From Methanobacteriota archaeon (GTDB taxonomy: Archaea; Thermoplasmatota; Thermoplasmata; SG8-5; JAGLSY01): a DNA stretch of 64,000 bases. The notes beneath the pieces were generated by a model. That model searched no databases. It saw nothing but the letters and a program-made list of their open reading frames with translations, and had not been told where the DNA came from. Made by a program: the position numbers and the translations under genes. How positions within the stretch are numbered: the stretch's first letter is position 1; every line of letters starts with the position of its first letter. Positions 19,081 to 57,790 of this stretch are shown here, piece after piece. The stretch is from positions 618,139 to 682,138 of the forward strand of contig JAEHCO010000001.1 in assembly GCA_020697715.1 (NCBI GenBank), read 5' to 3'.

Positions 19081-19166
19081 ATATCCTTGGCTGTTTGTCA
19101 ACCCGAGGCCAACCATATATTGGTCTCGTCTCGCTGTTAAGGTAGTGGGGTAAATATACGCACAAT

Positions 19167-19250
19167 GCGGGGGTACCCGAGCATGGCCAAAGGGGCTAGG
19201 TTGAGGGCCTAGTGGTTAGTCCTTCGAGGGTTCAAATCCCTTCCCCCGCA
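19167..19250 (+). tRNA. tRNA-Leu(GAG)
   Basis: Acceptor GCGGGGG/TCCCCCGC, anticodon arm CTAGG-TT-GAG-GG-CCTAG, long variable arm, TTCAAAT. Confidence 0.95.
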
Positions 19251-19435
19251 CTTTTTCTTTTACCTTCGCTGCGCTGGCTCACCCTCCAAAAGAAAAAGGC
19301 GCACAAATCGAATCAAGCCAATTGGCTTGATCAAAATAAATGCGTAGGTTCCATAGGTAAAGTCGCATTTAAAAAAAGAAAAATCGGGTGAGCCTGCTCG
19401 CTCAGTAAGTATGTACCTTCCTTGCATTGCAAGAC
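19251..19435. repeat. tRNA-adjacent structured element, copy A (with internal two-hairpin module)
   Basis: Homologous to 57664-57790 with compensatory changes; module 19310-19377 is homologous to 54531-54594. Confidence 0.85.
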
Positions 19436-19534
19436 AACCAGTAAATTGAAAAGCTTTGTAGATGTAAAATATTAAAACGAGAAGAGCATTATGGGATTGT
19501 AATATCTACCTATTGAAAGGATGGAGATGTAAAA

Positions 19535-54530: not shown

Positions 54531-54594
54531 GAGTCAAGCAAGCTTGACAAAAAAGATGCGTAGGATAAATGGATATAGTCGCATCTTAAAAAAA
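54531..54594. repeat. Solo copy of the two-hairpin module found inside element A
   Basis: GTCAAGC-AA-GCTTGAC, A-rich spacer, AAGATGCG-TAGG..AGT-CGCATCTT, A-run. Confidence 0.8.
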
Positions 54595-57537: not shown

Positions 57538-57663
57538 GCGGGGATAGCCAAGCCTGGCCAACGGCGCAGGACTTAAGATCTAAAGTCTACAAGAGTTCAT
57601 CGATAGGATAAGATAAGTTATCCTGTCCTTAGTGGTTCGAGGGTTCGAATCCCTTTCCCCGCA
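57538..57663 (+). tRNA. tRNA-Leu(TAA) with canonical 37/38 intron (57578-57619)
   Basis: Acceptor GCGGGGA/TCCCCGC, CAGGA-CT-TAA-G|intron|A-TCCTG; BHB helix CTTA/TAAG with bulges AG|A and TT|A. Confidence 0.94.
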
Positions 57664-57790
57664 CTTTTTTCTTTTAGACCTCGCTGTGCTGGCTTGGGCT
57701 CCAAAAGAAAAAAGACGCACAAATAAAGAAACTCGCCCAAGCCTGCTCGCTCGGCAAGTGTACGACCTGCCTTGAATACTAGGCAGGTCG
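57664..57790. repeat. tRNA-adjacent structured element, copy B
   Basis: Homologous to 19251-19435 but lacks the internal module. Confidence 0.85.

Follow-up and report, generated by a model that had tools for sequence, protein, structure and literature searches.

Family E, a dispersed structured repeat at gene ends in Thermoplasmata-type archaea, with two copies directly behind tRNA-Leu genes

A stretch of 64,000 nucleotides from a Thermoplasmata archaeon (assembly GCA_020697715.1, contig JAEHCO010000001.1, positions 618,139 to 682,138, here called the window) holds two tRNA-Leu genes, each followed from the base after the tRNA discriminator by a structured element, and these two elements, copies A and B, are copies of a dispersed repeat family, termed family E, whose structure is real. 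The similarity between A and B is far beyond chance, and family E is best read as a small structured mobile repeat, of a known kind, with an unusual and unexplained footprint. To the reading that E is a non-autonomous mobile DNA repeat which is also a two-way terminator, closest in kind to the MITEs (miniature transposable elements with inverted repeats) and to REPINs, we give about an even chance. For bacteria such small structured repeats have been studied thoroughly (REP/REPIN, Correia, ERIC), and a keyword-based literature search found no description of family E, nor of a REPIN-like system, in Thermoplasmata-type archaea. An earlier note on this DNA had recognised no family in the element, and that judgement stands, as in a scan of the window with Rfam 15 only tRNAs reach a gathering score, and in a relaxed scan of 19150-19480 all non-tRNA matches have E-values of at least 1.3 and lie far below the gathering scores.

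The two copies and the fold of the family

A covariance model (R1), built from 41 distinct copies of the family (others than, or overlapping, A and B), matches the 64 kb window at copies A and B exactly and at no further place. The features of the two loci and of one related module between them are these.

19167..19250, + strand: tRNA-Leu(GAG), called by ARAGORN and by Rfam RF00005 (48.3 bits); last base A19250
19251..19405, + strand: copy A, long form of family E; model R1, 70.3 bits, E-value 2.9e-16 (match 19249-19405), and nhmmer
19251..19261, + strand: 5' arm of helix P1 in copy A, the oligo-T tract CTTTTTCTTTT (T5CT4), from sequence and P1 covariation
19264..19284, + strand: 5' side of the long hairpin of copy A, with outer helix CTTCGC, linker TGCGCTG and P2 arm GGCTCACCC at 19276-19284
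19288..19298, + strand: 3' arm of P1 in copy A, AAAAGAAAAAG (A4GA5), within the hairpin loop, from sequence and covariation
19309..19374, + strand: nested module M, 66 nt, with hairpins ATCAAGCC/GGCTTGAT and AAATGCG/CGCATTT, from the A/B alignment and other copies; missing in B
19386..19405, + strand: 3' side of the long hairpin of copy A, with P2 arm GGGTGAGCC (19386-19394), linker TGCTC and outer helix GCTCAG, which is the element end
19421..19433, + strand: small hairpin CTTGCA/TGCAAG, locus-specific and outside family E, from sequence and the A/B alignment
54542..54594, + strand: stand-alone module M (G000:C11:672680-672732) with no surrounding E; blastn, 81% identity over 54 nt, and sequence context
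57538..57663, + strand: tRNA-Leu(UAA) with an intron after the anticodon loop; Rfam RF00005, 41 bits, no ARAGORN call
57664..57754, + strand: copy B, short form of family E; model R1, 106.4 bits, E-value 7.3e-26
57764..57789, + strand: hairpin GACCTGCC/GGCAGGTC, locus-specific and outside family E, retained in the orthologue in the related genome G003; from sequence

The unit is about 90 nt long and has defined ends, the conserved 3' end ...GCTCGCTCRG closing at 19405 in A and at 57754 in B, and a long form of about 155 nt carries the nested 66-nt module. Its anatomy is a subfamily-specific 5' tip (CCA, GGAAGC or GCG), a T-run and one long imperfect hairpin formed by an outer helix and P2, in the loop of which lie an A-run complementary to the 5' T-run and a conserved A-rich stretch, so that an oligo-T tract is present on each strand. 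In copy B the arms of P1 are T6CT4 and A4GA6 and those of P2 are GGCTTGGGC and GCCCAAGCC. The earlier note had both copies begin at the base after the discriminator, which coordinates and sequence confirm, and its P1 and P2 are complementary as described, with the sequences and the compensated differences between A and B as given and with the conserved linkers present in the A/B alignment. Its account of the fold was incomplete, in that P1 and P2 hold while a third, outer helix (CYTCGC/GCTCRG and variants) had gone unmentioned and, with this helix counted in, P2 forms the uppermost part of a single long imperfect hairpin. The insertion of about 60 nt that it placed in copy A is there, at a size of 66 nt (19309-19374), and is a separate two-hairpin module found elsewhere too; the 3' hairpins that it counted with the element (19421-19433 and 57764-57789) belong to the locus-specific flank and cannot be aligned between A and B.

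Covariation was scored for P1, P2 and the outer helix CCTCGC/GCTCGG on an alignment (A2) of 41 of the 42 distinct copies, the long-form copy L198 being excluded. Paired cells make up 78.6% against 69.2 ± 0.6% in shuffles, cells with double changes number 121 against 44.5, and none of 500 shuffles reaches the observed values. Double changes are spread over 19 of the 27 pairs, the P2 positions having 12-15 each, and slid registers all score below the observed one. The outer helix also occurs as CCGAGC/GCTCGG, GGTTTTC/GAAAACC and GCTTTC/GAAAGC, and in P1 the lone C of the T-run shifts in step with the G of the A-run. Unguided, RNAalifold recovered the outer helix, three linker pairs and the P2 core, and the z-scores of single-sequence folds against shuffles are -3.4 for the plus strand and -3.6 for the minus strand. 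The P1/P2 covariation from which the earlier note took the structure to be selected or maintained is thus upheld on 41 distinct copies. Copies with uncompensated changes, which that note had named as telling against the structure, do exist in part, some P2 arms being broken or chimeric and 18% of P2 cells unpaired; taken over all copies, 81.9% of the P2 cells pair.

Two compensated hairpins (TCAAAC.../...GTTTGA and AAATGCG.../...CGCATTT) and an A-run behind them make up module M, of about 70 nt. Four loci have it by itself, one of these immediately next to a tRNA 3' end, and at three it lies within the E loop; besides 54542-54594 of the window its loci in the same genome are C11:472621, C22:214159, C22:279161, C12:219 and C29:70398.

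Copies, relatives and empty sites

The window's own genome (G000; 2.12 Mb, 34 contigs, 93.8% complete) contains 19 full-length copies of E and seven fragments by BLAST and profile search, several of the copies lying at contig ends and some in tandem arrays, such as that at C29:70255-70811. BLAST matches were found in 21 of 41 relatives, and matches to the covariance model in 33 of the 151 class genomes that were sampled, where the counts per genome are at-least values drawn from the best 28 scored candidates each. E is present in all sampled genomes of families f1, f2, f3, f4, f6, f12, f15 and f19 and in none of 21 other families. An exact-pattern search of a species-level genome collection gave multiple matches in metagenome-assembled genomes (MAGs) titled Thermoplasmata, Thermoplasmatota, Methanobacteriota or Methanomassiliicoccales archaeon, and single matches in high-GC bacteria that look like chance. 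Of the possibilities raised by the earlier note, a non-autonomous mobile element fits these counts (19 full-length copies in the one genome, copies in 33 of 151 across the class). In practical terms E breaks assemblies at contig ends, and can mislead the annotation of tRNA trailers or non-coding RNAs (ncRNAs).

Comparison of orthologous loci reveals both filled and empty sites. At C11:818070 (L052) E is present in G000, and the related genomes G003 and G001 are without it. At C22:239289 (L049) it is present in G000 and G003; the G001 site is empty, with about 25 nt separating the two converging genes. Locus B carries a copy in G000, a long form in G003 and one of a different subfamily in G004, and in G001 it is empty. 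At the locus A orthologue of G003 CTTTTTTCTT stands behind the tRNA with the hairpin arms missing, and G001 has neither this sequence nor the arms at A or at B. Species at about 85% DNA identity therefore have some positions in common and differ at others, and copies of E are gained or lost over the time scale of species about 15% apart in DNA, with many others shared.

Core-only relatives of E without T-run and A-run occur in G004 (C92:2700-3050), G003 (C50:563-600; L198:54-91) and the related genome G037 (L194:1-370), and retain the two sides of the outer helix and, between them, TGCGCTGG, a short hairpin or loop and then CTGCTC. Because such core-only relatives exist, a wider superfamily around E is suggested.

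Gene ends, terminators and duplicated tails

Context was counted with our own crude calls of open reading frames (ORFs), and by these the copies of E lie mostly between converging genes. The ORF on the 5' side is directed towards E in 13 of 17 cases, as is the ORF on the 3' side, again in 13 of 17, with a stop codon at most 30 nt from the E 3' end in eight. The T5-7 tracts interrupted by one C are found on both strands of nearly all copies, which adjoin gene ends, and U-tracts are used in archaeal termination according to a passage of PMC8716108. Because the T-run and A-run of P1 put oligo-T on each strand, E is predicted to be a back-to-back two-way archaeal transcription terminator, in copy A with CTTTTTCTTTT (19251-19261) as a putative terminator of rightward transcription and with AAAAGAAAAAG, which is oligo-T on the minus strand, as a putative terminator of leftward transcription. 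On account of these tracts E may be tolerated or kept between converging genes, and at the tRNA-Leu genes it would supply or replace the T-run terminator directly behind the discriminator. E can in this respect be tested as a candidate mobile two-way terminator of archaea.

The place behind tRNA-Leu genes that first drew attention to the element is not typical of it. A tRNA in the same orientation stands upstream of only two of the 19 full-length copies in G000, and behind a same-strand tRNA stand only five of 71 distinct copies with an intact 5' end, namely A, B, two orthologues of B and one copy at another tRNA, which makes three independent loci; three copies have an opposite-strand tRNA just downstream. 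Metagenome contigs that have this tRNA 3' 23-mer followed by a trailer of 100 nt or more number 113, and on none of them does a same-strand E come behind it, a result that shows only that E is no general companion of that tRNA end, the 23-mer occurring outside the clade too. The earlier note had raised the question whether copies always follow tRNA ends, and they do not; nothing in the analysis points to the ribozyme it had considered, and CCCCGCA as a target is reduced to a loose preference at most, the 5' end in the main subfamily being ...CCA and the T-run, with 1-3 nt of microhomology to C-rich targets. A dedicated tRNA-Leu trailer element, be it a ribozyme, a processing signal or something targeting tRNA-Leu 3' ends, would account for two different tRNA-Leu genes of the window carrying E at the base after the discriminator and for the filling of the locus B orthologue in G003 and G004, and is nevertheless largely refuted by the copy census (17 of the 19 copies in G000 not behind a tRNA, one of the three independent tRNA loci belonging to a different tRNA) as well as by the 0 of 113 contigs and by the lack of E at both tRNA-Leu loci of G001, so that it retains next to no probability. 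The link with tRNA-Leu is incidental, or at most a mild target preference.

A further regular feature is the duplication of gene tails around E. Direct repeats of 23-81 nt flank 12 of the 19 copies in G000, the upstream repeat ending 0-14 nt before E and the downstream one beginning 0-52 nt after it, and repeats are likewise found around 12 of the 22 copies fetched from G003 (24-123 nt) and around seven of 23 copies from other relatives; seven of the 19 in G000, A and B among them, are without a duplication. The repeated segment is the 3' end of the gene converging on the 3' side of E; at two copies a tRNA is repeated in its 3' portion, running from the T-loop to a point 4-5 nt beyond the gene. 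Read in the orientation of the gene the layout is an intact gene with its tail, filler, E, a spare tail and native downstream DNA, and of the two junctions of E the one at the T-run end is precise, with 1-3 nt of microhomology, while the opposite one has 0-52 nt of filler.

How the two tails differ was analysed at 25 of the 29 duplicated loci, those with an adjacent ORF of at least 150 nt. The 79 differences fall as 14, 8 and 57 on codon positions 1, 2 and 3, and the codon differences as 50 synonymous against 22 non-synonymous. The third-position excess has p = 2e-12 against one third, and p = 4e-7 against 44%, our own rough estimate for a neutrally decaying spare copy. At 12 of the 25 loci the outer edge of the repeat is at most 2 nt from the stop codon. 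At C11:474596 the spare tail differs from the working one by five changes, all synonymous, and all five spare states match the sister species whereas those of the working copy do not. At L050 the tails are identical within G000 and within G003 and different between the two species, which indicates probable gene conversion or repeated duplication. From the pattern of these differences it is concluded that the two tails descend from two functional alleles, which makes recombination with DNA of another lineage and gene conversion part of the history; the pattern does not fit a simple staggered cut with neutral decay afterwards. Gene-tail duplications that end at a stop codon and differ at synonymous sites are a reproducible and unexplained footprint, and bear on how recombination and mobile DNA reshape gene ends.

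Two further ideas about the tails were dropped. A foreign origin of the gene next to E finds no local rise in divergence against G003 at three loci, and a small ORF arising from the junction of E and spare copy is in frame at one of two loci checked by hand and not at the other. In the C29 array it is a promoter-like stretch that is duplicated instead of a gene tail; the word concerned, GTACCAATTCCTTTATATATTACACAAAA, with a TATA-box-like core, is duplicated with E over C29:70200-70870 and recurs downstream of the E copy at C11:483456 (C11:483590-483640). In G003 two tRNA-Phe genes about 480 nt apart (L198/L270, C50:510-3857) have a long-form E between them, beside a Y1 transposase gene, and this is the duplicated-gene-end layout around E, here with a whole tRNA.

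Candidate enzyme, known systems and competing explanations

G000 has one Y1_Tnp gene (C1:16308-16796, minus strand), wedged between msrB and a tRNA-Phe gene, and its product scores 116 bits as an NCBIfam IS200/IS605 transposase and 23.8 bits on the NCBIfam REP_Tyr_transpos (RAYT) model, where the cut-off is 80. Close relatives of the protein (50-76% identity, the next-best matches being at 39% or less) are found in 20 of the 151 class genomes, mostly in single copy; all 20 of these genomes carry E, and none of the 118 genomes without E has a close Y1. The Y1 enzyme is the best available candidate for the mover and not a finding, and E is a possible substrate for an archaeal single-copy Y1 transposase. 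The earlier note had suggested looking for copies beside a Y1 gene, and these occur nearby only in G003, where a long-form E is about 290 nt away, and in G037, where E-like repeats lie within about 600 nt, the other loci being blank. Neither a convincing match to the repeat model nor an autonomous insertion sequence (IS) sharing the ends of E was found beside the Y1 genes at 32 loci, which come from incomplete MAGs. A Y1 gene within an intact IS with E-like ends was considered and rejected, the G000 gene lying between msrB and tRNA-Phe and the f6 loci being without a convincing repeat match; so was a viral carrier, the sole exact-pattern match in viral contigs (IMG/VR) lying in coding sequence without T-runs and P2 and being due to chance. 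The E-rich family f1 gave no match to rve, none of the TnpB type above the family cut-off and none to the IS1634 transposase. In family f6 the genomes G066, G023, G048 and G075 have 3-16 clustered Y1 genes that are 67-88% identical over little beyond their coding part (for example G066:C1:40007-51255 and C138:2925-9519), and these look like old paralogues rather than active IS copies.

Set beside known systems, E most recalls REP/REPIN or IS200-derived hairpin elements, and the terminator-bearing MITEs of bacteria. As far as excerpts from the literature on the bacterial REPIN/REP-RAYT system go, the two share short hairpin-forming intergenic repeats in tens of copies, a largely vertical persistence across a lineage (orthologous copies of E are common to G000 and G003), a structure more conserved than its sequence, and what may be a co-distribution with a mostly single-copy HUH/Y1 transposase, though 13 of the 33 genomes with E are without a close Y1. 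The differences are that the host lineage of E is archaeal, that E is one long hairpin with a T-run where a REPIN is two inverted REPs with a GTAG-type head, and that the long flanking duplications of E are no REPIN feature. On two counts E departs from REPIN-RAYT because its transposase, scoring as IS200/IS605 and below the RAYT cut-off, is not RAYT-class, and because the gene is not flanked by the repeat. With palindrome-associated miniature elements derived from IS200/IS605 it shares a TnpA (Y1) gene in the genome, a plausible recognition of the hairpin as single-stranded DNA, and a constant left junction, in that ...CA precedes the T-run in 12 of 12 main-subfamily copies. At six loci, on the other hand, the CCA of this junction is absent from the native gene sequence. 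E differs from these elements in having one hairpin only, as opposed to one per end, in that no intact IS with E-like ends was found, and in that about half of the copies have duplications of 23-123 nt where peel-and-paste transposition is not known to make any.

The only insertion sequences known to us to make long direct repeats of variable length are IS1634/IS1549, and in this one trait E resembles them. It lacks their terminal inverted repeats, the family transposase (NF033559) was not found in any of the five genomes G000-G004, and no DDE_Tnp_1 was found in G000; NF033559 has matches in three of 21 E-bearing relatives, only that in G018 above the cut-off. Correia, ERIC and RUP are intergenic MITEs of bacteria that carry terminators or promoters and have terminal inverted repeats and short fixed target duplications; like them E is a small structured non-coding repeat at gene ends, able to supply transcription signals, and unlike them it has neither such repeats nor such duplications. 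E does not qualify as a classical MITE, lacking both terminal inverted repeats and a short duplication of fixed length: its ends are (C)CA with the T-run (5') and GCTCGCTCGG (3'), the inverted repeats are internal with the hairpin starting about 15 nt inside the 5' end, and its flanks show either no duplication or one of 23-123 nt. Integrative elements target the 3' ends of tRNA and protein genes and carry a replacement gene end. The likeness of E to them extends to an intact gene with a 3'-end copy, an element and a displaced second copy, to two tRNA duplications running from the T-loop to the gene end, which is the classic integrase crossover region, and to flanking tails that both look descended from functional alleles; the differences are that E is about 100-150 nt long and codes for nothing, that the gene end is a different one at each locus, and that G000 has a single tyrosine recombinase (Phage_integrase) match. 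On account of the arrays and of a structure kept more than its sequence, integron attC sites, which go with an integron integrase, an attI platform and R/L boxes in the hairpin, were considered as well. A passage of PMC2266710 on the long direct repeats of variable length made by IS1634/IS1549 gives no proposed mechanism for them.

In the explanation held at about even chance, the hairpin would be what recognition or maintenance acts on, most probably in the form of single-stranded DNA, and E would be moved in trans, most plausibly by the single-copy IS200-type Y1 (HUH) transposase of the lineage, landing at gene ends with 1-3 nt of microhomology at a precise 5' junction. Several results weigh against this explanation. 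The ends of E are not mutual inverted repeats, and IS200/IS605 transposition is not known to duplicate its target, whereas many copies in G000, G003 and other relatives are surrounded by long direct repeats. Of the E-bearing genomes without a close Y1, four are incomplete and belong to the order, and the other nine are members of families f12 and f15, four of these nine being at least 90% complete. The 20 genomes in which E and close Y1 co-occur span only six families, which offers few independent contrasts. The Y1 gene is not flanked by E in G000, at 11 loci of family f6 or, G003 excepted, in the remaining genomes of the order, so that what usually marks a MITE-IS or REPIN-RAYT pair is lacking. 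As for the fold, covariation of inverted repeats can arise without selection, through templated repair within the hairpin, and a chimeric P2 with an A-type 5' arm and a B-type 3' arm is present in L043 and in the G003 orthologue of copy B.

A doubtful but not negligible alternative dispenses with a dedicated transposase and has E travel with the 3' end of the adjoining gene, as a gene-end cassette spread by recombination. Entry would occur by recombination in the conserved gene end, either from a small circle in the Campbell manner or by homology-facilitated illegitimate recombination with the 5' end of E free, and the incoming copy would keep the gene intact and leave the resident tail as the second copy. 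This would explain the codon-position bias and the synonymous excess between tails, the spare copy at C11:474596 whose five synonymous states are those of the sister species, the precise 5' junction against a 3' junction with filler, and the outer edge of the duplications at the stop codon, or 4-5 nt past the two tRNAs, which is where conservation between lineages ends; the direct repeats around E would moreover be expected to release such circles by recombination. It leaves the arrival of E at new loci and the duplication-free copies, A and B included, without explanation, at three loci the divergence of the gene beside E from the sister species does not rise towards E, the L050 tails can be explained by gene conversion or re-duplication alone, and no circle or donor was seen. 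Rather unlikely too is a combined account, in which E is a miniature mobile element sitting inside the 3' ends of essential genes, tRNA genes included, with a second functional-grade tail at each insertion, and in which E and gene end pass between lineages by recombination while the element stays tied to a vertically kept Y1; if this were true E would be a tiny integrative cassette and a mobile two-way terminator in one, and would correspond in archaea to REPIN-RAYT, though its insertions would turn out differently.

That E works as RNA seems less probable still. It would then be a cis-acting 3'-end or terminator element, or a small ncRNA in which P1 makes a pseudoknot over the P2 hairpin, spread through the genome by copying and retained for a role in the transcript such as 3'-end formation, stability or tRNA-trailer processing. 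This reading draws on the covariation in three helices with the register-compensated changes in P1, on the compensated stems of module M, on a fold more stable than shuffles, and on the placing of E at transcript 3' ends and directly behind tRNA genes at three independent loci. To judge by the sequence, each helix has on either strand one arm or both arms downstream of an oligo-T tract, so that an archaeal polymerase stopping there would leave the structure incompletely transcribed, and the fold is about equal on both strands, as for a DNA palindrome; there is no Rfam match, and tandem arrays, positions at contig ends, chimeric copies and flanking duplications are traits of mobile DNA. Retroposition in the manner of short interspersed nuclear elements is very improbable. 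Here the minus strand of E ends in an A-rich tail, AAAAGAAAAAAG, at which a nicked target would prime copying, a second nick at variable distance giving duplications of variable length, and the precise junction with microhomology at the A-rich end, the imprecise and filler-bearing junction at the other, the spread of duplication lengths from 23 to 123 nt and the match of T-run targets such as tRNA trailers to the tail would all follow. Yet RVT_1 was not found in G000, at its 93.8% completeness, and is present in only three of 21 E-bearing relatives, the partial copies retain the end opposite the A-rich tail (hidden Markov model positions 37-90 or 56-90), which is wrong for 5' truncation, and the third-position bias of the duplications is unpredicted.

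Two minor observations concern the neighbourhood of E. The copy at C22:215160 adjoins another repeat family of about 185 nt (L050:1205-1392; C22 of G000, about 214,900-215,090), to which G003 has 14 or more additional matches, with identities of 66-85%. The intron of tRNA-Leu(UAA) ahead of copy B is about 40 nt long, and the gene is overlooked by a default ARAGORN scan and detected by Rfam; introns are present in many tRNAs of this genome, in keeping with an archaeon.

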